42,384 nt of DNA, from sequence record OR188718.1; one strand, 5' to 3'. Shown piece after piece: positions 22,186-39,703 of this stretch. The notes under the pieces are model-generated. The model had not been told where the DNA came from. It did not search any database and saw nothing but the letters and a program-made list of their open reading frames with translations. Made by a program: the position numbers and the translations under genes. The stretch's first letter is position 1. Each line of letters opens with the position of its first letter. Source of the stretch: Pseudomonas phage LPPA56.

Positions 22186-22683
22186 TCAGGCTATCTGGAA
22201 TGCTTTGGCGAACATATCCAGCCAGGCATCAGGCGCGTTCAGGTTGCGAGTGTCGAAGTCTCGGCCCCAGTGTGCAAGCCAGCTTTCCAATTCGTCACAA
22301 CTGTATTCGCCATTGGCTAGGCCAAGGACAATTGTTACCAGTTCGTGGCCTGGGGCGGTCAACTCGTAGCCATTCATCAACAAGAAAAGGAAACCGGCGG
22401 CTGCTGCCGTGCGCTTGTTGGCGTTGGCAAACGGATGGTTCCGCACGATGCTTTCCATCAGCGTGGCTGCTAGCCGGTACATGTCGTTCGTCTGTTCGTA
22501 GAAACGAATCTGTGCCGGGCGCTGCTGCGAGGAAGACAGCTCATTGGGCTTCAAGACTCCGACCATTTCGTCCGGAGTCTGAAGCCTGATCAGTTGCTGG
22601 TTGATGAAGATAAGCGCGTCAACGGTGAGGTAGCGAATGCCTTCGCAGATTTCACCGTACTGGGAGAGATCCTTCTCGGCCAT
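22186..22683 (-). CDS. doc: Fic/Doc-family toxin (Doc-like)
   Basis: Motif HPFANANKRTAAAAGFLFL matches the Doc core HxFx(D/N)xNKRTA (P1 Doc: HIFNDANKRTAL). Confidence 0.75.
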   Translation of the reverse strand: MAEKDLSQYGEICEGIRYLTVDALIFINQQLIRLQTPDEMVGVLKPNELSSSQQRPAQIRFYEQTNDMYRLAATLMESIVRNHPFANANKRTAAAAGFLFLLMNGYELTAPGHELVTIVLGLANGEYSCDELESWLAHWGRDFDTRNLNAPDAWLDMFAKAFQIA

Positions 22684-22686
22684 GGC

Positions 22687-22878
22687 TTATACCTTGGCCA
22701 GCTCCTCAAGCGCTTTCTCATAACGCTGGAAAGCCATGCAGAAAGCCTTCTCAAGCTGGACCTGGTACTCACCTTCAGCCGGACGCGCCACTGCCTCGCC
22801 GCGAGACTTGTCGCGCGGGGGAATGTAAATGCGATCAGGTTTTTTCAGTGCGTGGCCCATGGCTATCTCCGTGCCCAA
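22687..22878 (-). CDS. putative antitoxin (Phd-like position)
   Basis: 63-aa ORF immediately upstream of doc with a 3-nt gap. Confidence 0.45.
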   Translation of the reverse strand: MGTEIAMGHALKKPDRIYIPPRDKSRGEAVARPAEGEYQVQLEKAFCMAFQRYEKALEELAKV

Positions 22879-23088: not shown

Positions 23089-23304
23089 TTGTACGTCGAA
23101 TTGTACGTTTCAGCGTAGGTTCAATGGTTTGGATGTGCGCAAACTATTGATTTAGATGGTGCCGGCACCAGGAGTCGAACCCGGGACCTACTGATTACAA
23201 GTAATCCGCCCTTAATTGCAAAATCAACGGTTTACGACGTTTCTTTGTACGCGCTTGCTGTCGTTCAGGCCGCATTCTATGCGGGGTGTTTCGATCATTG
23301 TACG
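23089..23304 (+). promoter_or_regulatory. attP region: four direct TTGTACG arm-type repeats flanking the tRNA-derived core
   Basis: TTGTACG at 23089, 23101, 23245 and 23298, all in one orientation, on both sides of the core 23157-23201. Also GTGGTAACG at 22912 and 23006. Confidence 0.5.
23157..23201 (-). tRNA. partial tRNA: 3' 45 nt (anticodon loop through CCA) of a tRNA-Thr(UGU)-like gene = att core; not an intact tRNA gene
   Basis: Reverse complement reads cttgtaa-tcagt-aggtc-ccggg-TTCGACT-cctgg-tgccggc-a-CCA (T-loop, T-stem, acceptor 3' strand). 5' half absent: no complementary acceptor strand or D-arm. Confidence 0.7.
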
Positions 23305-24464
23305 CCCCCGTTCGGGCCTCCCGAGGGGGCGACTATAGGTACGCTGAAGTCATAGACGTCCAGCATCGACTCGTCACGGTGGCCGCTGGCCTCCTGCTTT
23401 TCTCCCCGGGTGCCGGGGGTGTCAGTGATGCCGCGGCGTTTAAGGTCGTGCATGCCGAAGCGCTCCTCGGCGGTGATGATGTTCTTCTCCAGGGCCTGGG
23501 TGATGAACCGCTGCCAGGCGGTGTCTAGGCTCGACTTCCGGAGTGGCCCGCCGTGGGCTGCCACGATCAGCCGGCGCTGATCCGCTGCGATCGGTACCGG
23601 CATGCGCTTCTTCTCCCACACGTCAGCACGGACTTTCTTTGCTGCATCCCAGGCCGCGCGTAGGCGCGGTGTCCAGCGGACGATGTTGTCGCGGCTGCCC
23701 TTGCGGCGGTTGGTCAGCACGCCTTCTTCTGTTTCGTTCGCGTCGGTGAGCGTGACTGTCTCGATGCCGCGCAGGCGGCACAAGTAGCTGATCTCCATGA
23801 CATACCAGAGGTAGGGCGCGCAGGCGCCTTTCTGGCCGCGCACCAGTTGGCCCTGCTGATAGGCGAACTGAATGAGCTGCGTCATAGCAGCCGGCGCAGG
23901 CAGCCGGCGGCGCTTTCGTTCTTTGGGTGCCTCGATGCCTTTGGCGACGTTCTCGTCGACAAAGCCCCGGTTCTTGCCCCACTGCAGCACCAGACGCAGG
24001 TAGCGCAGGGCGTGGGCCGCCTTGGATGGCGTGCCTTGCTCCGCGATCTTGTCGATCAGGCGCTGGACCAGGGGAGAGGTGAACTTGCGGACGGCCAGGT
24101 CGCCCAGCGTCTTGCCGGCGAGTTGGGTCGGTACGCCAAGCAGCACGTCGCGGCTGTAGCTGTAGTCTTCCTGGGTCTTCTGGCCGAGGCTGGTGAACCT
24201 GATGCTGGCGTGATACTGCTCGCACAGGTACCGCAGGCTGTCACGGTCGATGCCCTGCAATTCTTCGACGATGCGGTGCAGTTCGGCCAGGGTGACCGTA
24301 GCGCCGCACAGGTTCTTGCGTACCCGGCGGCCGGCTTCGTTCATGCTCAACCGGTACCAGCAGCCGGCGCCGCGGTGGTCGAAATAGACGTCCTTCGGCA
24401 GAGAAGCTTGGTCTATGTGGGCAGGGATGTGAGGGTTTGCCTGGCGTTTTCTTCCGCGTCTCAT
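23295..24464 (-). CDS. int: tyrosine integrase (phage integrase family)
   Basis: C-terminal HDLKRRG...HRDESMLDVY recombinase-type motifs. Adjacent to attP core. Start at ATG 24464 (ATGA-coupled to xis) preferred over track start 24545. Confidence 0.8.
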   Translation of the reverse strand: MRRGRKRQANPHIPAHIDQASLPKDVYFDHRGAGCWYRLSMNEAGRRVRKNLCGATVTLAELHRIVEELQGIDRDSLRYLCEQYHASIRFTSLGQKTQEDYSYSRDVLLGVPTQLAGKTLGDLAVRKFTSPLVQRLIDKIAEQGTPSKAAHALRYLRLVLQWGKNRGFVDENVAKGIEAPKERKRRRLPAPAAMTQLIQFAYQQGQLVRGQKGACAPYLWYVMEISYLCRLRGIETVTLTDANETEEGVLTNRRKGSRDNIVRWTPRLRAAWDAAKKVRADVWEKKRMPVPIAADQRRLIVAAHGGPLRKSSLDTAWQRFITQALEKNIITAEERFGMHDLKRRGITDTPGTRGEKQEASGHRDESMLDVYDFSVPIVAPSGGPNGGVQ

Positions 24465-24676
24465 CTGAGTATGTCTGGTCCGTAGTGTTCCTGGTTGCCT
24501 GCGGCGAGGCCCGCGGCATGGTTGATCAGTTCTGTGGTGGTCCATGGGCCCTTGCGGCCGTGGAAAATCTTGATGCCCTGCTCACGCAGCACGCGCTCGA
24601 CATCGGCGCGGCGCACGTAGCCGGTGACCTGCTGAAGATCCTCGAAGTCTAGGATGCCGGCGACATTGCTGCTCAT
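24461..24676 (-). CDS. xis: excisionase-like DNA-binding protein (DUF4224-like)
   Basis: 70 aa from ATG 24676 (AGGAG RBS). Sequence QQVTGYVRRADVERVLREQGIKIFHGRKGPW resembles DUF4224 proteins that precede integrases. Confidence 0.5.
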   Translation of the reverse strand: MSSNVAGILDFEDLQQVTGYVRRADVERVLREQGIKIFHGRKGPWTTTELINHAAGLAAGNQEHYGPDILR

Positions 24677-24692
24677 GATCGCGTTCTCCTGC

Positions 24693-25151
24693 TCAGGCGG
24701 CGACTGGCGAGGGCCAGGCGCCGACAGCGTCATAGATGCGGGCGGCCTGGGCTTCGTCCAGGGTCACGCTGTCGGGAATTGCAATCCAGCCGGAGCTGAC
24801 GATGTGCTTCGAATTACAGCTGGCGAGGTGTTCGCGGTAGAAGGCCTCTATCACGTCGGTTAGCTGGTCGGCGAGGTAGACGCCTTGTGGCGCCACCTCG
24901 GTGCTCTTGATGTAGCGCTTGCCGAACTGGTCGATGCACAGGGCGCTGATGTAGATGCACCAGGGATGGGTGAAGTCGCACACCGCGTCAACCATGGGGT
25001 GCGACTTAATCAGCCTGCCGGTTTTCCAGTTCACTAGGTGCTGGTCGCCGGCTGGATCGATGTTGATCACGGCGGCGTGGTTGGTGCGCACCAGTGCCCG
25101 GCAGTTGCGCTCGAGGCGGGCGCGCATGTTGTGGGGCTTGCGGGTGCTCAT
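24693..25151 (-). CDS. hypothetical protein
   Basis: 152-aa ORF, ATGA-coupled to the upstream gene. Confidence 0.4.
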   Translation of the reverse strand: MSTRKPHNMRARLERNCRALVRTNHAAVINIDPAGDQHLVNWKTGRLIKSHPMVDAVCDFTHPWCIYISALCIDQFGKRYIKSTEVAPQGVYLADQLTDVIEAFYREHLASCNSKHIVSSGWIAIPDSVTLDEAQAARIYDAVGAWPSPVAA

Positions 25152-26662
25152 TTCGCCCCCTTGAACATGCGGCGCTCGGTCTGGCCGACGAGCCAGGCCT
25201 TCGGCACCTCATTGCCGGGCGAGGCGGTGAGCAGTTCGGCAGCACGCCACAGCGCGTCACTGGTGCGAAGATCGGAATAGGCCATGATCGCTTCCCAGTG
25301 GCTTTCCGCCTCTTCGTCATCGAACTCGGACAGCAACTGAACGATGGCAAAGGTCTGGGCGTGCTCCGGGGCACCGGAGTCAAACATGCCGGCAGCGTTG
25401 AGCGAGTATTTCCTTCCTTCGGCCGCTACCAGAGCGGCGGCATTTAACGGCACGCTGTGCTGAGCCTGGTTGTCGATCAACGCGATGATGTGGTCAGGCA
25501 TGGTCAGCGCCTCGTAACGCACCATCAGGTCCGAGGCCTCATCTCCGCTGAGTAGCGGGTTCTTGAGTGCGACAGCAATTCGGCGCAGTTCCGAGTGGTC
25601 GCCGGACTGAGTCTGGGTTACTGGGGCGTCGGTGCGGGCCCAACCAGCTGAGCACATGGCAGCTTCGTCCACTGCTTGGATGTCATTCGTAGAGCTTAGG
25701 AAAACCACAATTGCCTCGGGGTTGCACTGCGCCCGAATAGCGTCATGGAACCGCTTGCATTCGTGAACCTGCTCTTCGTTGAAGTCGCCGACCAGGGCGA
25801 TTACCGAAGCATCTACGGGAACATCCTTGATGCGCGCGGCGACCAGGGCTTCGAGTGCTTTGACCCTGGCCAGGGCAGCGTCGCGCAGTTTCTGGAGCGC
25901 CCTGGATTCAGCTTCCCAGTGGTCGGCAGCGCCTCGCAGTTCCTTAATCTCCATTTCCATTCCAGCGCACTGATGGCGCGCAGCATCGCCTTTTGCGGCC
26001 GCGTCGTTTGCCATAGCTAGTTCGGCTTCCAACTCCGCGCACCTGGCCAGGGCGGCGTCGCGCTCTTGCTCCAGTTGGTCGATACCAACAGACAGGTAGC
26101 CGTCCATCATGCCCATCATGCGGTGTTCGAGGGCGTCGGCGCGCTCGTTGGCGGCGTCTCGCTCTTTTTCGCAGCGCCCCCAGCCGTTCGTTGCGCTACC
26201 GAGCTTGAAGATCAGCTCGGTGTTGCGCTCTCGCTGAGATTGAAGCTCCGCCCGCAGTGCTTCGACTTCGGCCTGGGCGACTTTCAGTTGATCCTCCAAG
26301 CGCTTGGCATAGCCGCGAATGCCTTGCACGGTCCAGCCACCATCGATGGCGTCTTGCGGCAGCCCTTCGCAGATACGCTCGAACTGGCGCAGGCGCACGG
26401 CGATTTCGTTCTTGTGGTCTCGCTCCTGTTCGGCCAGGTATTGCCAGTGCTCGGCAGCCGGCCATGGGGACGGAACAACCACTGCGTCGACCGTAATTCC
26501 CTCTGGCATCGGCAGGGCATTCAGGTCGGCCGCGTGCTTGTCGGCGTCTTCGCGGCTGAATGCTGCGTACAGTTCGTCCGGCCCTTGGGCATGTACAGCC
26601 CACAGTTCCGGCCGCTCCGCCTCGGCGATGGGCAGGCTGTCTTGTTGGGTCTTCTGGCTCAT
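25148..26662 (-). CDS. hypothetical coiled-coil protein, translationally coupled to the DGR reverse transcriptase
   Basis: 504 aa. Residues ~80-290 are E/A/L/R-rich heptad-like. Start ATG 26662 overlaps the RT stop (ATGA). Confidence 0.5.
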   Translation of the reverse strand: MSQKTQQDSLPIAEAERPELWAVHAQGPDELYAAFSREDADKHAADLNALPMPEGITVDAVVVPSPWPAAEHWQYLAEQERDHKNEIAVRLRQFERICEGLPQDAIDGGWTVQGIRGYAKRLEDQLKVAQAEVEALRAELQSQRERNTELIFKLGSATNGWGRCEKERDAANERADALEHRMMGMMDGYLSVGIDQLEQERDAALARCAELEAELAMANDAAAKGDAARHQCAGMEMEIKELRGAADHWEAESRALQKLRDAALARVKALEALVAARIKDVPVDASVIALVGDFNEEQVHECKRFHDAIRAQCNPEAIVVFLSSTNDIQAVDEAAMCSAGWARTDAPVTQTQSGDHSELRRIAVALKNPLLSGDEASDLMVRYEALTMPDHIIALIDNQAQHSVPLNAAALVAAEGRKYSLNAAGMFDSGAPEHAQTFAIVQLLSEFDDEEAESHWEAIMAYSDLRTSDALWRAAELLTASPGNEVPKAWLVGQTERRMFKGAK

Positions 26663-27729
26663 GCTGCCTCCTTGAACGTCTTGCGCAGGTTTGCGGAGAC
26701 AGAGCGGCCGCGCTTCTGCACGATCCTGGCCAGCCTCCGGCGGGCGTTGTGGCTGTGGCTGGCCTGGTCCAGCAGGCCGAAGTAGCTGTTGGCGGTTTCG
26801 CGCAGCTGTTCCCCCGGCGCGGCGCTTACCTGGCGCAGGGCAGTTTCCACGGTGCGCGGGCGTGTGACGCGGCGGTGCGGAAGGATCACCTGGCCAACGA
26901 AATCGATCCCGCGGGCGATGGGCTGGAGCACGGTCTTCGCAGGGTTGAGTCGGGCATGTAACGTGTCGGCCAGGAATGCCTCGATCTGGTTGTGCCAGGC
27001 ATTCAGCTGTTGGGGAGACTCGGCCAGCAGAACGAAGTCATCGACGTAACGGATGTAGTGCTTCACGCGCAGCTGGTGTTTCACGAACTGGTCCAGAGCG
27101 TCGAGGTGCACGTTGGCGAAGAACTGTGACGACAGGTTGCCGATAGGCAGGCCCAGGTACGCCGGCTGGGCGGTGAGCCGCTTGTGCTGCGGCACGCGAT
27201 TCAGCAAGCGGGTGGGGCTGCGGGTTTCGTAGTTGGTGCGTGGGTCGTGCCAGAGGATCTGTAGGGCAAGTGCCCGCCAGGTTGGCTCGGGGATGCGCGC
27301 GATCAGTTGCTGCTCGAGCACCCGCTTGTCGAGGGAGATGAAGAAATTGGACAGGTCGCACTTCAGGTAGAAGGCGCGGCGTTTCCAGTTGCGGGTGATG
27401 CTGCGCACCTTCTTCTCCAGGCGCTGGGCGCCATAGAGTGTGCCGCGGCCCTTGATGCAGGCACAGCTATCAACAATGAAGGAGCGCTCGATGCGCGGGC
27501 CGATGTGGTTGTACAGCAGGTGGTGGACGATTCTGTCTCTGAAGTCGGCGGCCCACACCTCGCGGTGCTTCGGGTGGGTCACGACAAAGCAGATGGAGGC
27601 GCCGGGTTGGTAGGCGCCGGTGTTCAGCTCATGGTGGAGTTGCATGATGTTGCGCTCCAGGTTGAACTCGAATGCAAGGGCCGACTTGCTGTTGCGCTTG
27701 CTGCGCCGGCAGTCGTAATAGGCCTGCAT
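26659..27729 (-). CDS. DGR reverse transcriptase
   Basis: RT motifs incl. IRYVDDFVLL (YxDD), NLSSQFFANVHLDALD, QPGASICF. N-terminus FSIEALMQAYYDCRRSKR aligns with DGR RT N-termini. Start ATG 27729 with GAGG RBS; the track ORF extends to 28077 across the TR and is probably not translated. Confidence 0.85.
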   Translation of the reverse strand: MQAYYDCRRSKRNSKSALAFEFNLERNIMQLHHELNTGAYQPGASICFVVTHPKHREVWAADFRDRIVHHLLYNHIGPRIERSFIVDSCACIKGRGTLYGAQRLEKKVRSITRNWKRRAFYLKCDLSNFFISLDKRVLEQQLIARIPEPTWRALALQILWHDPRTNYETRSPTRLLNRVPQHKRLTAQPAYLGLPIGNLSSQFFANVHLDALDQFVKHQLRVKHYIRYVDDFVLLAESPQQLNAWHNQIEAFLADTLHARLNPAKTVLQPIARGIDFVGQVILPHRRVTRPRTVETALRQVSAAPGEQLRETANSYFGLLDQASHSHNARRRLARIVQKRGRSVSANLRKTFKEAA

Positions 27730-27775
27730 GAGTGCCTCGATAGAAAATCCAGCATGGCCGCCGGTGTTGCCGTTC

Positions 27776-27877
27776 GATGCTGCGGACGGCGAAAGCGGGC
27801 CGTGCGTTGTCCTTGTCGTCGTTGTTCTGGTTGCCATCGTCGAAGTTCTGGATCCACGCGTTGTTCGGGCCGTTCTG
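27776..27877 (-). repeat. DGR template repeat (TR)
   Basis: 102-bp copy next to the RT. Every site that differs in the other two copies is an adenine on the minus strand. 8 AAC codons in the VR frame. Confidence 0.85.
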
Positions 27878-28051
27878 CGCCAGGTCGTGCTATCTACGTC
27901 GCGCTGCCGAAGGCCGAGGCCGATCAGTGGCGAGACTGCGCAGGGCCTGCCGGGACGATGCCCGGCGGTTCCCCTGGTGCGCATGACGGTGGCCTTGTGA
28001 GCCAGCGGCACGACCAGAATCAAAATCGCGCTGGTGTGAGGGCCGTGGCGC

Positions 28052-28414
28052 TCACACGGCTGGCGATGCGGCGGCATTTCGTTTCCACCCAGTGGCCTGC
28101 CGGCCTATGTCGTCGGTGATTTCAATGGCTCGGCCGTGCTGGGCTCCGCTGAGCAGCCCGAGGTCGACCGAGAGGCGCAGCATCAGTTCGACGACCTGGA
28201 TGCGTTCCAGGATCAGCTGAATGTGCGCTACCCGTTCCTGGCCGCCGGCCGTGTTGGCGCGGAAGATCAGGATCGACACGTCGATGCACTCGTTGAGCAC
28301 CTTTTCCCCGAGGGTGCGCTTGAAGTCGCGGCGCCACCCTTTGGAGAGGTCGGCTACAAGCCGGGCCAGTTCTCCGGCGCGTTTGTAGATCGGCAGGTGT
28401 TGGGCGATGGCCAT
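28052..28414 (-). CDS. avd: Avd-like accessory variability determinant (four-helix-bundle protein)
   Basis: 120 aa, basic, predicted helical, lying between target gene and TR as in the Bordetella phage mtd-avd-TR-brt cassette. Confidence 0.7.
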   Translation of the reverse strand: MAIAQHLPIYKRAGELARLVADLSKGWRRDFKRTLGEKVLNECIDVSILIFRANTAGGQERVAHIQLILERIQVVELMLRLSVDLGLLSGAQHGRAIEITDDIGRQATGWKRNAAASPAV

Positions 28415-28428
28415 GCTGGAAAACTCGC

Positions 28429-29091
28429 TTACTGCGCGCTGCGCGCGCAGTTGTTCAGAGCATTAAGTGGTGAAGGGATGAGGATTCTGCGGACGGCGAA
28501 AGCGGGCCGTGCGAGGCCCTTGCCGTCGATGCCCTGGTAGCCACCGCCGAAGTACTGGAACCACGCGCTGTTCGGGCCGTCCTGCGTGCTGGTGAGGCAC
28601 CAGCCCTTGCCCTGAAACTGTTCAGGGATGTGTGCCCAGCACAGGTACGCCTCTGCGCGGGACGGCAGGTAGAGATCCGTGTGTCCTTCAGCTTCCTGCT
28701 CGGTGGCCCATAGCGCAGCAGGGTGATCGATATCATGAGCGGTCAACGCACGGGTGTTGGCCAGGCCGTCGCGGATGTGATCTGCGCCGGTGACCCGGTA
28801 GCCGCGGCCGCCGTAGGTGATCGAGTCGATCTGTGCATGCTTCGGGGCGATAAGGTGGTAATCCGGTTCGCCATTTTCGCCACGCATCACGCCGACGTAA
28901 GTGCCGCCCTGGCCGTGCCAGTGCTGGCCGATAGCGGGCGGAGTGAGGTGGGCATCGAGAGTGATCAAATTGCCCTGGATGCTGCCGCTGGGTATCAGGC
29001 CTGTTTCCTGTTCCAAGGTGTGGCGGGCGAGCAGGGCGTTGGTGGTGATGAGCGTGGTGTCGCCGATTGCCAGAGTGATTTCGTTCTGCAT
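28429..29091 (-). CDS. DGR target protein 1 (DUF1566 / C-type-lectin-fold-like C-terminus carrying VR1)
   Basis: C-terminus WCLTSTQDGPNSAWFQYFGGGYQGIDGKGLARPAFAVRR = VR1. DUF1566-like motifs (GLANTRAL..., ...ARPAFAVRRI). No signal peptide. Confidence 0.8.
   Translation of the reverse strand: MQNEITLAIGDTTLITTNALLARHTLEQETGLIPSGSIQGNLITLDAHLTPPAIGQHWHGQGGTYVGVMRGENGEPDYHLIAPKHAQIDSITYGGRGYRVTGADHIRDGLANTRALTAHDIDHPAALWATEQEAEGHTDLYLPSRAEAYLCWAHIPEQFQGKGWCLTSTQDGPNSAWFQYFGGGYQGIDGKGLARPAFAVRRILIPSPLNALNNCARSAQ
28483..28584 (-). repeat. DGR variable repeat VR1
   Basis: Differs from the TR only at TR-adenine positions. Followed 32 nt 3' by an 8-bp GC hairpin (28432-28450). Confidence 0.85.
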
Positions 29092-29153
29092 GGTCTAGTC
29101 CTCAAAAATTTGAGCCGACCGCGCGCGGGGCGCGCGGCAGGAAAGCGAAGTGG

Positions 29154-29768
29154 TCAAGGGGTGACTTTGATTCTGCGGACGGCGAAAGCGGGCCGTGCGC
29201 TGACCTTGCCGCCGTCGGTCTGGTAGCCATCGCCGAAGAGCTGGATCCACGCGCCGTACGGGCCGTCCTGCGTACTGGTCCAATAACTGCGGGCCTCCAG
29301 CGCCTCCTCGCCGCCATCCTGGAAGATGGCAATGGGGCTCTGCCCGGGCGCCACGGCGGTGTACGGGTAGCCCGGCGGCAAGCTGCTGGGGTTGTCGCCA
29401 TCGCGGAAGCTGCACCAGTTCTCATCGGTGGTGGGCTTGCAGACCCGATAGATCATTTCGTTCTCGTCGCGGGCGCCGAGATACCAGTCGTTGTGGCCGC
29501 CAATCGAAAGGCCGAGCGCCCAGGCGGCCAGTTTCGAGCCGGCTTCGGCCATGGCCTTGGTGTTGGCCAGGCCGTCCACGAAGCTATCGGCGTCCGGGAT
29601 CAGCAGTCCGTACTCACCCCAGTGGATGGGAGCGTGGAAGCCCAGTGCTTTGGGTGCGCGGATGAGGGCGAAGCGCTCGCCCTGAATCTGGTACTGGCCC
29701 ATGTAGAAGCCGCCCTCGAACGGGGTGCCGAGGACGGTTGGCAGGGCGATGCTGGTCAGTGCGTTCAT
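29154..29768 (-). CDS. DGR target protein 2 (paralogue of target 1, VR2 at C-terminus)
   Basis: C-terminus YWTSTQDGPYGAWIQLFGDGYQTDGGKVSARPAFAVRRIKVTP. Shares the GLANT...W...YL core with target 1. Confidence 0.8.
   Translation of the reverse strand: MNALTSIALPTVLGTPFEGGFYMGQYQIQGERFALIRAPKALGFHAPIHWGEYGLLIPDADSFVDGLANTKAMAEAGSKLAAWALGLSIGGHNDWYLGARDENEMIYRVCKPTTDENWCSFRDGDNPSSLPPGYPYTAVAPGQSPIAIFQDGGEEALEARSYWTSTQDGPYGAWIQLFGDGYQTDGGKVSARPAFAVRRIKVTP
29169..29270 (-). repeat. DGR variable repeat VR2
   Basis: Differs from the TR only at TR-adenine positions. Followed 32 nt 3' by an 8-bp GC hairpin (29119-29137). Confidence 0.85.
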
Positions 29769-29779
29769 GTTTCATTTCC

Positions 29780-30322
29780 TCAGGCATTCGCGGTGCGATG
29801 GGTGATGGAGAGCAGATCCATCAGGCGGTAGTGGAAGCGGGTGCTGGCTTCTTCGATGGACCAGGGCTTGATGCGTGCCGCCAAGGGCTGGATACCGTTC
29901 AGGCAGGCCCACTCGGCGGGGTCGGCAGGCATCAGGTCGCGGCGCTCGGTGGCCAGCGCCACCAGGTCGGCGTGCTTGACTGACTCCGGCAGTTCCTTGT
30001 CCAGGTCGAACCGGGTGCAGATGGCTTCCCAGATGTGGTCCTCGACTTCGCGGTAGGCATGTATCTGCTTCTTGAGCGGCCGGACCATGTCACCGACGTA
30101 GGACTCGGTGGCGTCATGCAGCAGGGCGGACAGGCAGTCGGTGCTCGGCACCAGGTCTGCCACCAGGTAGCTGTGCTGGGCAACGCTGTAGTGCTGGGAC
30201 ACGTGGCCGTTGAACCGGCAGCAGTGGGCCAGGGCGTGGGAGATATCCCGCGGATCGATCATTTCCGGCTTGGGCTCGAATAGGTCGAAGCGCTTGCCGG
30301 TGTAGGTGAGAATCCAGGTCAT
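29780..30322 (-). CDS. HD-domain phosphohydrolase (YfdR-like 5'-deoxynucleotidase)
   Basis: HD motif context HSYLVADL...LLHDATESYVGD; 180 aa as in prophage YfdR. Confidence 0.7.
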   Translation of the reverse strand: MTWILTYTGKRFDLFEPKPEMIDPRDISHALAHCCRFNGHVSQHYSVAQHSYLVADLVPSTDCLSALLHDATESYVGDMVRPLKKQIHAYREVEDHIWEAICTRFDLDKELPESVKHADLVALATERRDLMPADPAEWACLNGIQPLAARIKPWSIEEASTRFHYRLMDLLSITHRTANA

Positions 30323-32551: not shown

Positions 32552-32788
32552 TCAGGCTGCCTTGACGCCCTTAGCGTCGAGGAACTCGGCCAGGTCCGTC
32601 AGGTACACCAGCGGCTCCTCCAGTCGGGACGTCGTGAGCTTGCGGGTGACCAGTGCCACCTCCCCGCTCTTGATCAGAGCCCGCAGGCGTTTATCGGTCT
32701 TCAGGTGTGGGAAGTACGCTGCCCGGACCTGGGCGAGGGTGAGCGTTGCTGTACCCCACTGCTGGTAGAGCTGCTCAAGTGTCGTCAT
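32552..32788 (-). CDS. PrtN-like small DNA-binding activator / excisionase-like protein
   Basis: 78 aa; LTLAQVRAAYFPHLKTDKRLRALIKSGEVAL resembles the PrtN family common in Pseudomonas prophages. Confidence 0.4.
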   Translation of the reverse strand: MTTLEQLYQQWGTATLTLAQVRAAYFPHLKTDKRLRALIKSGEVALVTRKLTTSRLEEPLVYLTDLAEFLDAKGVKAA

Positions 32789-34613: not shown

Positions 34614-35300
34614 TCAGGCGGAGGGAATAAAGCGTGAGGACTTGACTATCGCTCCAACGAAATGGACATGGACGATCTCGTCGTCTTCCAGGAAGACGGG
34701 AGATTCGTTGGGGTTCACGCTGTCGAAGCGCCAAGTGCCCTCTCGGCGGTAGCTGTATTCCTTGATCATTGCGCGGCCATCAACTGTCTTAACCAGCACT
34801 TCGTCGCCTGGCGCAAAGGAGCGGTTTGGCTCGATCATCACATACTCTTTGTGCTTGATTCTCGGGTGCATGCTATGCCCGACAACCTGCAGCGCATAGG
34901 CATTGGGATCGGTGCTGCTGATTAAGATGCTGCCGTCGCCATGGCCCACTGGATAGTCTAGGGCCTCGAAGTATCCATCTACACCCAACTTAGCTTTCCC
35001 TACTACTGGGACGCTTCCTTTCAGCACCGGTAGGGCTTCCTCTTCCAGGTTGCTCACCGGTAGGTCTTTCCCTTGAGCCCGATGCACGTCCGGGAATTGG
35101 GTTGGCATCACAAGAGAGTTCGGTGCTAGGCCAATCTTTGCCTCTAGGTTTCGTGCGGCTTTCTCGCCCATCGGGCGATGGCCATTCAGCAGTTGCGAGA
35201 TGTAGGAAGCGTCAAGGTTGTGCTTCTCAGCAAAATCCTTGGTCTTCTGATCGCCGATGAGGGCGCCAAGGGCGCGGATTCTGAGCTTGTTGATGTCCAT
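34614..35300 (-). CDS. cI: CI-like repressor (XRE HTH + S24 LexA-like peptidase domain)
   Basis: N-terminus DFAEKHNLDASYISQLLNG (HTH). C-terminus GHSMHP (catalytic Ser) and VDGRAMIKEY (Lys). Divergent from cro. Confidence 0.85.
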   Translation of the reverse strand: MDINKLRIRALGALIGDQKTKDFAEKHNLDASYISQLLNGHRPMGEKAARNLEAKIGLAPNSLVMPTQFPDVHRAQGKDLPVSNLEEEALPVLKGSVPVVGKAKLGVDGYFEALDYPVGHGDGSILISSTDPNAYALQVVGHSMHPRIKHKEYVMIEPNRSFAPGDEVLVKTVDGRAMIKEYSYRREGTWRFDSVNPNESPVFLEDDEIVHVHFVGAIVKSSRFIPSA

Positions 35301-35402: not shown

Positions 35403-35633
35403 ATGAAACTACTCGACTACCTCAAGCCCCTGAGTAAAGACGCAAAGGCAGCGCTTGCGGCCCGTTGTGGGACGACTGTGGGGCAACTGACCCAGGTGGC
35501 TTACGGGCATCGTCGGGCGAATGCCGCCCTGGCAATTGATCTCGATAGGGAGACTGGCGGTGTTGTGGCATGCGAAGAGACCAGGCCTGACATCGACTGG
35601 GCCTATCTCCGCGGGAAGCAGCGAGCGGCATGA
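35403..35633 (+). CDS. cro: Cro-like regulator (YdaS/Cro family)
   Basis: 76 aa, divergent from cI, GGAGGG RBS; sequence typical of small Cro/YdaS HTH proteins. Confidence 0.55.
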   Translation: MKLLDYLKPLSKDAKAALAARCGTTVGQLTQVAYGHRRANAALAIDLDRETGGVVACEETRPDIDWAYLRGKQRAA

Positions 35634-35881: not shown

Positions 35882-36026
35882 ATTCGACCTGGACCAGTTC
35901 GGGGCCGCGCTGTTTTAGGCGGTAGAACTCTAGGCCGCTGAAGTCGACTTCGTAGTGATCGGGGTAGACGGCGAGATGCTCCCGGAGCATTCCGACGGTG
36001 ATTGTCTGAGGCTTCTTGGAGGGCAT
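35823..36026 (-). CDS. small hypothetical protein on the opposite strand within the rightward early region
   Basis: 67 aa from ATG 36026 (AAGGA RBS), high GC3. Confidence 0.3.
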   Translation of the reverse strand: MPSKKPQTITVGMLREHLAVYPDHYEVDFSGLEFYRLKQRGPELVQVEFSEQVYRDKTGRVVVESLE

Positions 36027-36232
36027 ACGCAGTTCCTTGCGAAAAGAAGAGGGAGGTGAATACAGAAAAGGTTGGCCGGCGCGGGCCTCTACACCCGCGC
36101 CGGCCGGGTGCCGGACAGGGCCTCTACACCCTGGGCCCGGCGTACGACGACACAGCACATTGCATCGGTCGTGGTCATAGAGTAGGGCGAGCCCCGCTCG
36201 ATGGCTACACCGTAAAAGGAGTATTTACGGTT

Positions 36233-36733
36233 ATGAGCCGGAAAGACCTGCTGCCGGACGCCGGTCCGGTATTCGATCTCCGCCAGGCGCTATACCGCGC
36301 AGGGCGCGACTACAAGGGAGGCTTGACCTCCCTGGCCCACGACATGGTTCTGCCCTATGAGGACCTGCAGAAGAAACTGAAGCTTGACGAGGAACGCCGG
36401 TGGCCCACCCCCGACGAACTCGAAGACATCATCCGCCTGACCAAGGATCCACGCCTGCTGGACGCACTGATGCGCCCGGCCGGTGCTGTCTGGTATCGGC
36501 CTGAGGCGGTCAATGCCACGGCTTCCGCCCTGAAGGCGGTCGGGGATTTGCTGCAGCGCGAAGGCGAGTTTGTTGCCAGTCTGCATAAAGGTGCGGATGA
36601 CAACCGCTGGGAGCCCGTCGAGGTCGCCGATCTGGAGTACCACGGTGCGAATGTGATTCGGGCTGTCCTGGGCATCATGGCCGGCGCCCGCCAGGCAATG
36701 GAGCAGGATCTGGAGGATAGAGCCAATGGGTGA
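36233..36733 (+). CDS. CII-like regulatory protein (Phage_CP76-like)
   Basis: 166 aa from ATG 36233 (AAGGAG RBS); position after cro. Family assignment from memory. Confidence 0.35.
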   Translation: MSRKDLLPDAGPVFDLRQALYRAGRDYKGGLTSLAHDMVLPYEDLQKKLKLDEERRWPTPDELEDIIRLTKDPRLLDALMRPAGAVWYRPEAVNATASALKAVGDLLQREGEFVASLHKGADDNRWEPVEVADLEYHGANVIRAVLGIMAGARQAMEQDLEDRANG

Positions 36734-36968
36734 CATCCTCGATCGCGCCTCCGAACTGGAGGAGTTCCATTTGCAGGCGGCGCTCGCTTCTCGACCCCGT
36801 CCGGCGCCGGCGTACAGTATCAGCGCGACGATCTGCGATGACTGCGGCAGCGAGATCCCACCAGCGCGCCGCCTGGCGGTGCCTGGGTGTGATTGCTGCG
36901 TTGAGTGCCAGCAGCGCAGGGAGGTGCGTCGTGGATACCGCTTGCAGACTAAGTCGGGGGCGGTATGA
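36726..36968 (+). CDS. TraR/DksA-family C4 zinc-finger protein
   Basis: CDDCGSEIPPARRLAVPGCDCCVECQ: CxxC-N17-CxxC. Confidence 0.7.
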   Translation: MGDILDRASELEEFHLQAALASRPRPAPAYSISATICDDCGSEIPPARRLAVPGCDCCVECQQRREVRRGYRLQTKSGAV

Positions 36969-39703
36969 GGCCTGGCGAAGATAGTCTACGTAGCGAGTGG
37001 GCTCGCTGGTATGTCGAACAAGGCATCGCGCTGGTAGTCATCGAACCGGGGAACAAGATCCCCAAGGGCAAGGCCTGGCAGAGGCCAGGTGGTTACTACA
37101 CCGATGCTGCCCAGGCTGAGGCTTTCTGGTCCAAGCATCCGAAGCACAACATGGGGGCTGTACTCGGCCCCAGTCGTGTTTGCTCGCTGGACGTCGACGA
37201 CGTCCCATCCACTCGCCAGGTGCTGTGGGACTGCCTCGGGTTGGATCTGGATGCGTTGCCGGTAGCCTACCCCACCGTGGTAGGGAATCCGGAGCGCTTC
37301 CGAATTCTGTTCCAGGTGCCGGATGGGGTTGAGCTGAGTCGGCACTCACTGAGCTGGCCCAACGAGAAGGACCCGGACGGCTCCAAGTTCAAGCTCGCGC
37401 AGGCGGCGATCCTCGCAGCGAAAGAGAAGGGGGATGCCGAGCAGCAGACAAAGATGCAGGTGCTGGCCGACAGCCTGAAGCGCTTCACCGTGTTCGAGCT
37501 GCGCGCAGGCCTAGTGCAGGACGTCCTGCCACCCTCCATCCATCCTGGCACCGGGCGACCGTACACCTGGCGCAACCCGCCAAAGGGTGAGGGGCTACCG
37601 GTATTGCCGGACAACCTGCTGAACATCTGGAAGAACTGGGACATCTTCAAGCGTGACGCCGAGGCGGCATGCCCTTGGGCGCCGGTGCAGAAACCGAAGA
37701 AGGTTACCAAACCGAAGCGGCTGGCTCCGGCTGGTAGCGCTGGGTCGGTTATCGATGCCTTCAACCGGGCACACGATGTCGAGGCATTGCTCGAGGCGCA
37801 TGGCTACCTCAAGCGTGGGAAGAAGTGGCTGTGTCCGCAGAGCAGCACCGGCTTGCCGGGCGTCACGGTCAGCGAGGGGCGGGTGTATTCACACCATGGC
37901 TCAGACCCTCTCGCCAACGGCCACCAGAACGACGCGTTCGACGTGTTCTGCATCCTCGACCACAACGGCAACCAGGGCGAGGCGGTCAAGGCCGCGGCGC
38001 GCCTACTGGGCATCGAGCGCGAGTCCAGAGCACCCAGTGTTCGCGAGGCGCTGGAGCAGTTCGATCAGATGCTTAGCGGCGATGAGCCGCCCCCCAGCCC
38101 GGCCAAGGAGCTTCCCCGCTCCCCATCGGTCGAAGACGTGGATGCCGACGGCGACGCCGCAGGTGACAGGGGGGCGGGGGAGGGCCTGACTCTGGCCAAG
38201 GCGCTGCGGCGCTACGCCCTGGTCGAGGGGACAACCCACGTGTGGGACATCGACAAGGCGATGAAGATGAAGAAGACCGCCTTCGTCGCCCTGGTGGGCC
38301 AGAAGGTTTTCAAGGAGTGGTCGGAGGTTACCGACGAGAAGAAGAAAAAGCGCATCAGCGAAGAGCAGGTCAAGGAGATCGAGCGAGCCCGGTCCATGGC
38401 CGGAAAGGCCGTCGGGCCGATGAGCATGCCTCCAGCGGTGCGCTACGTCTACATCGATGGCACCAAGGACGTGTGGGACCTGGCGAAGAAACGGCGTGTG
38501 CCCGAGGGCGCAGTGAAGATGGCCCTGGGCGATGCCTACTCGCTCTGGCTCAACAGCCCGGAGCGCCGGGTGGTAGACGTTGCCGACATTGTCTTTGACC
38601 CGACGATGACGTGCGACACCAAGACATGCATCAACACGTTCGAGGGCCTGCCGCTGGAGCCCAAGCGCGATGATGCGGCGTGCGAGAACCTCCGCTGGCT
38701 GATCGCCTTTCTGTGCAACCACGCTGAGGACTCCATGCAGTGGCTGGTGCGCTGGCTTGCGTATCCGCTGCAGCACACCGGCGCGAAGATGGACACGGCG
38801 GTGCTGATGCACTCGACGATGGAGGGGTCAGGCAAGAGCCTCTTGTTCTCCGTCGTGATGGGACGCCTGTATGGTCAGTATTCCGCCACGGTTGGGCAGA
38901 CCCAGCTTGAGGGGAACTTCAATGCCTGGCAGAGCGGCAAGTTGTGGGCGGTGTTCGAGGAAGTGGTCAGCCGGGACCAGCGCTACAACCAGGTCGGCAA
39001 GATCAAGCAGTTGATCACCGGTCAGACCGTGCGCATCGAGAGCAAGTTCGTGAACGGCTGGGAAGAAGCCAGCCACATGAACGCTGTGTTCCTTTCCAAC
39101 GAAATCATGCCCTGGCCAATCAGCGAGGGTGATCGGCGGTTCTTGGTCATGTGGCCCGAGGAAAAGCTGCCGGAGGCCAGGCAGAAGGCGATCAAGCACG
39201 AGTTGGCCAATGGCGGCGTCGAAGCGCTATATGCCTGGCTGCTGGCCCAGGACTTAGGCGACTTCGACCCACAGACCAAGCCACCGAGCACGCCGGCGCG
39301 CGAACGCCTGGTGGCCTTGAGTAGGTCCACCTGGCAGACGTTCGTACACCTCTGGCGCAGCGGTGAACTCGGGCACGGGCTGTGGGGGGCATGCATGAGC
39401 AAAGATCTCTACGCGCTGTTTCTGGAGTGGTGCCAGCAGAACAAGGAGCATTCGATAAGCCACACGAAGTTCAGTCTGTTCATCAGCACGGCAAGTATCG
39501 AGAAGACCAGGCCAATTCCCTGGACGGACGGCAGCAACCGTCGGTTCGCGGCGTTCTTCTTCCCTGAGGACCCGGAGTCCTTCCTGCCCCCATCCCCTTC
39601 CTCGGCCGCGCTGGGTGCGCACGTGGTCGAGTGGCGGGCGCGAGCCAAGCTAGCGGGCTGGAACGTGGACAGTTGGGACCATGTGAAGGGGCACGCGACG
39701 TGA
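36965..39703 (+). CDS. replication protein: N-terminal Prim-Pol primase fused to a D5_N / SF3 helicase (P4 alpha-like)
   Basis: 912 aa; Walker A MEGSGKSLLFSVV; VDDV acidic primase motif in the N-terminal domain. Followed by an iteron origin. Confidence 0.8.
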   Translation: MRPGEDSLRSEWARWYVEQGIALVVIEPGNKIPKGKAWQRPGGYYTDAAQAEAFWSKHPKHNMGAVLGPSRVCSLDVDDVPSTRQVLWDCLGLDLDALPVAYPTVVGNPERFRILFQVPDGVELSRHSLSWPNEKDPDGSKFKLAQAAILAAKEKGDAEQQTKMQVLADSLKRFTVFELRAGLVQDVLPPSIHPGTGRPYTWRNPPKGEGLPVLPDNLLNIWKNWDIFKRDAEAACPWAPVQKPKKVTKPKRLAPAGSAGSVIDAFNRAHDVEALLEAHGYLKRGKKWLCPQSSTGLPGVTVSEGRVYSHHGSDPLANGHQNDAFDVFCILDHNGNQGEAVKAAARLLGIERESRAPSVREALEQFDQMLSGDEPPPSPAKELPRSPSVEDVDADGDAAGDRGAGEGLTLAKALRRYALVEGTTHVWDIDKAMKMKKTAFVALVGQKVFKEWSEVTDEKKKKRISEEQVKEIERARSMAGKAVGPMSMPPAVRYVYIDGTKDVWDLAKKRRVPEGAVKMALGDAYSLWLNSPERRVVDVADIVFDPTMTCDTKTCINTFEGLPLEPKRDDAACENLRWLIAFLCNHAEDSMQWLVRWLAYPLQHTGAKMDTAVLMHSTMEGSGKSLLFSVVMGRLYGQYSATVGQTQLEGNFNAWQSGKLWAVFEEVVSRDQRYNQVGKIKQLITGQTVRIESKFVNGWEEASHMNAVFLSNEIMPWPISEGDRRFLVMWPEEKLPEARQKAIKHELANGGVEALYAWLLAQDLGDFDPQTKPPSTPARERLVALSRSTWQTFVHLWRSGELGHGLWGACMSKDLYALFLEWCQQNKEHSISHTKFSLFISTASIEKTRPIPWTDGSNRRFAAFFFPEDPESFLPPSPSSAALGAHVVEWRARAKLAGWNVDSWDHVKGHAT

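Follow-up and report, generated by a model that had tools for sequence, protein, structure and literature searches.

A complete and apparently active diversity-generating retroelement with two paralogous lectin-fold targets among the early genes of Pseudomonas phage LPPA56

The sequence of Pseudomonas phage LPPA56 (record OR188718.1; 42,384 nucleotides (nt), henceforth the window) is that of a lambda-like temperate siphophage of Pseudomonas aeruginosa, and it holds a complete diversity-generating retroelement (DGR) that, judging from the sequences of natural variants, is active in nature. The paradigm for phage DGRs is host-range switching through tail fibres. In LPPA56 the cassette lies in the delayed-early leftward operon, inside a tightly packed, same-strand gene array between cI and xis/int, and we regard as probable, though far from assured, the explanation that its two targets, the 204-residue protein A and its 220-residue paralogue B, are soluble, early-expressed binders that form no integral part of the virion. 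An earlier note on this DNA, drawn up from the letters alone, had proposed a DGR with two DUF1566/C-type-lectin targets, had given the minus-strand order as second target, first target, avd, template repeat (TR) and reverse transcriptase (RT), had assigned the cassette to the leftward early operon, with a YfdR-like HD hydrolase gene and int on its two sides, and had described the tail module as free of variable repeats (VRs). All of this stands: the TR/VR pattern, the RT, the Avd protein and the modelled folds identify the element, the gene calls and gene positions agree with the proposed order and placement, and neither an adenine-tolerant scan nor a 26-mer search of the window found a VR in the tail module.

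The repeats bear the mark of adenine-directed substitution. Over the 104-nt core each VR differs from the TR at 15 positions, 14 of which coincide with TR adenines (hypergeometric P = 2.3e-8 for each VR), and the fifteenth mismatch is a single C-to-A change near the 3' end that is common to VR1 and VR2. This shared change is the expected difference between the initiation of mutagenic homing (IMH) sequence and its counterpart IMH*; indeed, the TR and both VRs end in a GC-rich 3' segment that is identical but for this one C/A difference. No third VR was found on either strand of the 42.4-kb window when any base was allowed at TR adenines and up to 15 mismatches elsewhere, nor did the 26-mer search of the window reveal further copies of the TR or VRs.

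The machinery around the repeats is equally recognisable. The RT gene starts with the ATG at 27729 and encodes 356 residues, the length at which the RTs of relatives are likewise called; the 472-residue RT open reading frame (ORF) of the initial ORF list reads through the TR and should be trimmed to this start. RTs of the DGR type have I/LGxxxSQ and YxDD as their hallmark motifs, and the translation shows IGNLSSQ and YVDD. Avd is matched by a PHROG family named after this protein (Table 1), while in other libraries its matches, to DivGenRetAVD of NCBIfam (1.3e-8) and bAvd of Pfam (2.9e-6), each fall below the curated cut-off. From the 3' end of avd into the start of the TR extends an RT-15 RNA motif, which cmscan aligned over the full model (positions 1-192 of 192) with 172.2 bits against a gathering score of 82 (E 7e-43); when the window is compared with prophages L004 and L005, this stretch is better conserved than the flanking coding DNA. 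Folding of the DNA placed a GC-rich hairpin 3' of both VRs and none 3' of the TR. We take these hairpins to resemble the hairpin/cruciform element needed for target recognition in the Bordetella phage DGR. A short hairpin with a T-run in the spacer between TR and RT, picked up by a scan for terminator-like structures, is possibly part of the DGR RNA spacer.

Both targets belong to the Lcl_C/DUF1566 superfamily, an assignment that rests on precomputed PF07603 matches in many of their homologues, on the match of both to phrog_4245 and on models that match the structure 8q4e; the Pfam model PF07603 (Lcl_C) itself scores target A at 21.5 bits, below its cut-off of 34.9, and does not match target B. 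The two proteins share 32% identity (BLASTP 2e-18). Structure prediction, which the earlier note had put forward as a check, gave a C-type-lectin fold for each in AlphaFold2 and Foldseek. The model of target A, with a predicted local distance difference test (pLDDT) score of 93.6, incorporates the N-terminus into the fold, and its best structural match is the C-terminal domain of Legionella Lcl (8q4e), followed by many C-type lectins that include the DGR targets TvpA, Mtd and TaqVP. The model of target B (pLDDT 85.2) consists of an N-terminal mini-domain made of a beta-hairpin and a helix, a disordered segment at residues 33-44 and the same lectin fold, with 8q4e as the top Foldseek match at probability 1.0; a sequence search of the PDB with target B gave no match. 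An AbrB/MazE-like identity for the mini-domain was considered and dropped as unsupported, Pfam searches at E values up to 10 with three such N-termini having come back empty. In target A the VR covers codons about 166-200 out of 204, and in target B it covers the corresponding codons. Inspection by eye of both N-termini, which the earlier note had described as devoid of signal peptides and lipoboxes, revealed no basic N-region, lipobox or twin-arginine motif. Such an absence is uninformative for phage proteins, given that Mtd, a tail-fibre protein of the virion, is itself made in the cytoplasm.

The two targets represent two paralogue types, one with a long conserved insert (...CSFRDGDNPSSLPPGYPYT...) and the other with an N-terminal extension. 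In aligned Pseudomonas and Chromobacterium sequences the types are told apart by an 'RDGDNPSS' insert on the one hand and an N-terminal extension on a flexible linker on the other. The genes stand in the order A-B in the window and in the reverse order, B-A, in P. syringae phages, and target pairs of the same two sizes also occur in Chromobacterium, Ralstonia and Pseudogulbenkiania (loci in Table 1). Since the targets are always paired as distinct paralogue types, the pairing suggests that they form a heteromer or perform two complementary activities.

Natural variants tell how the element has been used. Homologues of target A are abundant in P. aeruginosa genomes, and the 42 full-length P. 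aeruginosa copies carry 42 different VR peptides on 8 non-VR backbones. Positions with at least three residue types among these copies are confined to the TR codons AAC (nine), GAC/GAT (five), ATC and AAG, apart from the N-terminal backbone positions 7, 12 and 13 and position 160. Three CAG (Gln) codons are near-invariant, with one variant each at two of the three, and the AAG codon specifies Lys in 36 of the 42 copies. These four codons (167, 176, 183 and 188 of target A) all hold TR adenines, and their retention despite the template adenines argues, as far as comparison of the copies goes, for purifying selection on a functional scaffold. VR1 likewise differs among the window, L004 and L005 at codons with TR adenines; the TR is 100% identical in L004 and has one change in L005, whereas the VRs differ. 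The theoretical repertoire was computed as about 1.6e14 per target.

The cassette is a portable module, complete in itself and some 3.1 kb long (about 26659-29805). By blastn, homology extends over 26275-29729 (98.5%) in another P. aeruginosa prophage (GCA_900706995) and over 26659-29805 (88%) in P. nitroreducens, and the neighbouring genes on both sides differ in these two copies. In Lodos, a sibling phage that has no DGR, the HD gene is joined straight to a methyltransferase gene. A DNA methyltransferase gene also lies directly 3' of the RT gene in several relatives, at the place where the window has a 504-residue ORF.

The same module recurs in phages of several genera. The RT is 62-70% identical to the RTs of the Pseudomonas phages SC_8_H2H8_2017, Cruim01, phPA-G and Haboob, of the Burkholderia phages Magia, vB_E192a and vB_PL1, and of the Shewanella phage vB_Sb_QDWS. 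In every RT relative whose context was examined (Cruim01, Haboob, Magia, vB_Sb_QDWS and vB_E192a), two adjacent small ORFs are followed by avd, TR and RT, and the whole is set between immunity/recombination genes and int. The Lcl_C fold of the two small ORFs was confirmed in Haboob and Magia and the spacing of the repeats in Cruim01, Haboob and Magia, and the RT-15 RNA is annotated in Cruim01; the gene layout of the Shewanella phage is compatible, as judged without repeat comparison. Prophage copies with this placement are present in P. aeruginosa GCA_900706995, P. nitroreducens and Ralstonia pseudosolanacearum, and a Chromobacterium violaceum prophage has the targets and avd at the same place, with no intact RT called. 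The window's P. aeruginosa cassette was absent from the phage collection searched, yet it is common in P. aeruginosa genomes. Thus, 'unusual', the word of the earlier note for this context, was an overstatement: an early-operon cassette with two small targets is the norm for this RT lineage, and by these comparisons the layout is characteristic of an entire DGR lineage that catalogues already include, and is not special to LPPA56.

Members of the target family also occur in the same operon where no DGR is present, namely in Aurca01, Pseudogulbenkiania NH8B, a Pseudomonas metagenome-assembled genome and phage D3 (orf68). The pairs of Aurca01 (L009, 5754-5870 and 6442-6558) and NH8B (L015, 9001-10267) are orphans with no adjoining avd, TR or RT. 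The two Aurca01 ORFs still carry VRs, whose core differs from the Cruim01 TR only at adenines. In such orphan pairs the machinery has either been lost recently or acts in trans. D3 orf68 (L017, 24081-24641) encodes 186 residues and is the first ORF leftward of cI; it offers a handy model for the role of an un-diversified target protein.

As to where the two targets act, we favour an early role outside the virion because DGR-less siblings keep the structural module unchanged and because the cassette moves among unrelated phage backbones, among them the myophage Magia, which carries a related cassette (PMC7883833). Bases 1-20373, the whole structural module, align with DGR-less Lodos in one piece at 98.2% identity and with LPPA36 in three pieces at 98.3%, and are 97.5% identical to vB_Pae_U5 and 95% to Turba. 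If the targets were instead optional virion-associated receptor-binding proteins that dock on the tail fibres or tail tip, so that the DGR tunes host range as in BPP-1 and its early-operon location is mere coincidence, a dedicated docking partner might be sought in this module; since it is collinear with that of phages lacking the DGR, none is evident. Moreover, across the roughly dozen genomes examined the cassette is never found within or beside a tail-gene module; all but the lytic phage PMBT3 have it in the cI-to-int operon, and it passes between phages with different replication and packaging genes. A place on the virion nevertheless has arguments of its own, in that fibre-like viral proteins and bacterial adhesins have members of the fold family at their distal tip, the surface glycans of P. 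aeruginosa are highly variable, and those DGR targets of this fold that have been characterised are exposed on a virion or a cell surface (Wu 2018, PMC5758913; Roux 2021, PMC8144416). On balance we consider virion-borne receptor binding less likely, yet a serious rival.

Several observations weigh against the explanation that we favour. Elsewhere the Lcl_C/DUF1566 fold has been met in adhesins outside the cell and at the tips of fibres (Lcl, a fimbrial protein of Bacteroides and the fibre tip Bd2740 of Bdellovibrio), and long fibre-like proteins of viruses, one of them annotated as a tail fibre protein, carry it as their C-terminal tip; these uses favour a surface-binding, possibly virion-linked, role. 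The small N-terminal domain that the model of target B places on a flexible linker could be a docking module, or adaptor, for such a role. In lytic PMBT3 a homologue ends a same-strand run with peptidoglycan-hydrolase and lysis genes. Mutagenic retrohoming is known from its footprint in natural variants alone, and transcription of the cassette from a leftward promoter of the PL type is read from gene order only, a scan for consensus sigma-70 promoters, PL or internal, having returned zero sites, a result that is uninformative for this GC-rich genome.

Might the two proteins benefit the lysogen instead, being expressed from the prophage as hypervariable sensors in the cytoplasm or as exclusion factors, directed against superinfecting phages or other invaders? 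The location of D3 orf68, a DGR-less family member, next to cI resembles that of lambda rexAB, which are expressed in the lysogen. The Haboob cassette, too, comes after cI and a glycosyltransferase gene, and DGR-diversified cytoplasmic proteins have been proposed as putative sensors in multicellular bacteria (PMC10907252). In the window, however, about 5 kb separates the targets from cI upstream, they are part of a tight early array, and the gaps of only 11 nt and 62 nt leave no room for a promoter of their own. They also have no effector domain and no PADLOC match, and the finding of 42 VRs on 8 backbones is easier to reconcile with diversification in lytic growth than with a silent prophage, if not decisively so. 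We therefore think a service to the lysogen improbable. Membership of the targets, the HD gene and their neighbours in a defence system was also considered; PADLOC yielded only generic RT models.

A working cycle can be sketched on the model of the Bordetella phage DGR. In it, Avd and RT would copy the TR-containing RT-15 RNA into complementary DNA (cDNA) with misincorporation opposite template adenines. This cDNA would then take the place of both VRs, with their common GC-rich 3' end (IMH) and the GC hairpins downstream as guides. On the putative ligand-binding face of the two paralogous C-type-lectin proteins, some 15 codons (nine AAC, five GAY and one ATC) would thereby be rewritten. From its gene position the operon is expected to be repressed in the lysogen, so diversification and target expression would follow induction or infection, and new VR pairs would be released among the progeny of each burst. 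The least certain step is the last, in which the targets, while infection proceeds, may act on some variable ligand, perhaps a host or competitor factor or a surface glycan encountered at lysis. A more specific and distinctly speculative version is that the paired DUF1566 proteins are an intracellular early repertoire of binders against variable host or rival-phage proteins such as defence or exclusion factors; we would bet against it, but, if it held, no phage DGR before this one would have been found to work in intracellular conflict and not in adsorption.

The gene that follows the RT calls for a different assignment from the one proposed in the earlier note, which had taken the 504-residue coiled-coil ORF for a co-translated accessory factor of the DGR. 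The overlaps on which that proposal was built are real: an ATGA at 26659-26662 joins the RT stop to the start of the ORF, a second at 25148-25151 joins its end to the next ORF, and the RT 3' end contains a ribosome-binding site, AAGGAGG, ahead of the start. In the other P. aeruginosa prophage, moreover, a stretch that matches the first 133 codons at 97% identity still comes after the RT, as part of a 272-residue gene that shares only residues 1-133 with the ORF. But the same ATGA overlap marks the next junction downstream, which makes the coupling a general trait of the operon, and the ORF is not conserved after the RT in relatives. Homology of the P. nitroreducens cassette ends exactly at the RT ATGA and is followed by a 610-residue DNA methylase; the post-RT genes of Cruim01, Haboob, Magia, Shewanella phage vB_Sb_QDWS, Burkholderia phage vB_E192a and the Ralstonia prophage are unrelated to the ORF. 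An ORF of the same length, 504 residues, further downstream in the P. nitroreducens prophage was set aside as unrelated, with no real BLASTP similarity.

Pieces of the 504-residue protein are instead scattered over phages at the same operon position. Residues 13-179 occur in PP9W, Meadow, TH15 and the CF24a group, residues 86-405 partly in LESphi2, and residues 385-498 in Epa33, FBPa19 and the CF23a group. The earlier note had itself named the presence of the ORF in DGR-less relatives as evidence against its proposal, and the pieces in PP9W and LESphi2, which belong to genes of about 500 residues at the same early-operon position, have no RT or avd in the flanks examined. Nor did Pfam, NCBIfam, PADLOC or PDB sequence searches find the HRDC-like or nucleic-acid-binding domain that the note had suggested; the matches to SMC, augmin and the coiled coil of RNA polymerase beta' were dismissed as weak coiled-coil noise. 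A translationally coupled DGR accessory factor is thus very improbable. The ORF is a mosaic early gene that abuts the module and is no component of the DGR, and annotations should not label it as one. In the window (26659-26690, minus strand) and in L005 (13090-13115) the last RT codons encode both a ribosome-binding site and the ATGA overlap. Since cassette homology ends exactly at this ATGA, the RT stop acts as a recombination-module boundary that couples translation to the gene that happens to follow.

Comparison with known systems places the LPPA56 element close to the Bordetella BPP-1 DGR (mtd-avd-TR-brt) in its parts and their order (a target with a 3' VR, avd, TR and RT), in the adenine-specific differences between TR and VR, in the GC-rich shared 3' end with its TR/VR difference and in the hairpin after each VR. 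It differs from BPP-1 in its targets, which are two small proteins encoded between cI and int and not a tail-fibre protein of the virion like Mtd, in that these belong to the Lcl_C/DUF1566 branch of the fold and not to that of Mtd, and in the match of the RNA upstream of its TR to Rfam RT-15. With the DGR of Legionella pneumophila and the DUF1566 'category d'/CLec2 targets (PMC5758913) it has the target domain class in common, but its targets, a pair of paralogues, show no visible export signal, and it forms a module of a phage early operon. Among phage DGRs of its own lineage (Cruim01, Haboob, phPA-G, SC_8_H2H8_2017, Magia, vB_E192a, vB_PL1 and vB_Sb_QDWS) it stands out by its flanking genes and its longer targets, those of Magia and Haboob having 120-194 residues.

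Parts of this lineage have been recorded before. Wu et al. 2018 (PMC5758913) described the DUF1566 target class, about half of whose members are short, DUF1566-only proteins; DiGReF (PMC3521204) lists DGRs with two VRs in P. fluorescens, Ralstonia and Burkholderia and one with four in Pseudogulbenkiania NH8B; Yan et al. (PMC6642488) place Pseudomonas and Burkholderia among the genera richest in DGRs; and the announcement of Magia (PMC7883833) already remarked on a DGR with short targets. Our literature search on early-operon DGR targets returned such catalogues and the genome announcement only, and no paper on the placement or on what these targets do. The lineage is common in P. aeruginosa prophages, is found in Burkholderia, Ralstonia, Chromobacterium and probably Shewanella elements as well, and has, among its early genes, a conserved pair of small, hypervariable proteins with the lectin fold. 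As the structural module works unchanged in DGR-less siblings, these proteins may do something other than adsorption, and since P. aeruginosa with its inducible prophages lends itself readily to manipulation, the ligand of an early-operon DGR target is directly addressable.

Table 1. Positions of the DGR parts, of other genes in the window and of related loci (L numbers denote compared sequences; all other positions are in the window)
Feature	Position	Strand	Basis or remark
TR, template repeat, 104 nt with 30 adenines	27776-27879	-	repeat comparison
VR1, 3' end of target B	28483-28586	-	15 mismatches to TR, 14 at TR adenines
VR2, codons 166-200 of target A	29169-29272	-	15 mismatches to TR, 14 at TR adenines
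Target A, 204-residue DUF1566/Lcl_C C-type-lectin-fold protein with VR2 at 3' end	29154..29768	-	
Target B, 220-residue paralogue with VR1 at 3' end	28429..29091	-	phrog_4245 2.8e-26
avd, 120-residue accessory four-helix-bundle protein	28052..28414	-	phrog_3206 'Avd protein of DGR' 6e-26
RT-15 RNA motif (Rfam RF03018), avd 3' end into TR start	27878..28068	-	cmscan
DGR reverse transcriptase, 356 residues	26659..27729	-	Pfam RVT_1 2.5e-13
GC-rich hairpin, starts 13 nt past target A stop	29115..29141	-	DNA fold, stem of 8-9 GC pairs
GC-rich hairpin after VR1, overlaps last target B codons	28431..28451	-	DNA fold, 9-bp perfect GC stem
Short hairpin and T-run, TR-to-RT spacer	27749..27764	-	terminator-like scan
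504-residue coiled-coil ORF, neighbour outside the DGR	25148..26662	-	pieces match 8 different PHROGs of unknown function
HD phosphohydrolase gene (YfdR-like)	29780-30322	-	
int	23295-24545	-	
xis	24461-24733	-	
cI	34614-35300	-	
cro-like gene	35403-35633	+	
cII-like gene	36002-36733	+	
Primase gene	36965-39703	+	
Target pair, window	28429-29768	-	
Target pair, L001	4996-6301		
Target pair, L009	5271-6579		
Target pair, L010	9001-10272		
Target pair, L014	9001-10253		
Target pair, L015	9001-10267		
DNA methyltransferase gene, L005	13107-14939		
DNA methyltransferase gene, L018	4264-5313		
DNA methyltransferase gene, L019	7129-7827		
DNA methyltransferase gene, L013	5835-7988		

The remainder of the window follows a lambda-like plan. 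Downstream of the packaging, head and tail genes come lysis genes and morons and then the long minus-strand array, which extends from cI down to xis and int. Ahead of target A this array contains, in order, a YfdP-like gene, a DUF2303/YfdQ-like gene, a 244-residue ORF and the HD phosphohydrolase gene; from target A onwards it runs through the 204-residue ORF, the 220-residue ORF, avd, a 322-nt non-coding stretch, the RT gene, the 504-residue ORF, a 152-residue ORF, xis and int. Mid-operon and far from int, a minus-strand gene at 32552-32788 encodes a second small DNA-binding protein of the 'excisionase' type (phrog_1300; PrtN/pyocin-activator family in relatives), and the 217-nt gap that follows it may contain an internal promoter ahead of the YfdP-like gene. 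In the moron region, with lysis genes on one side and int on the other, a minus-strand gene at 22186-22683 encodes a Doc-family toxin (TIGR01550, 2.5e-30), and the 63-residue ORF just upstream of it (22687-22878, minus strand) is probably its Phd-type antitoxin.

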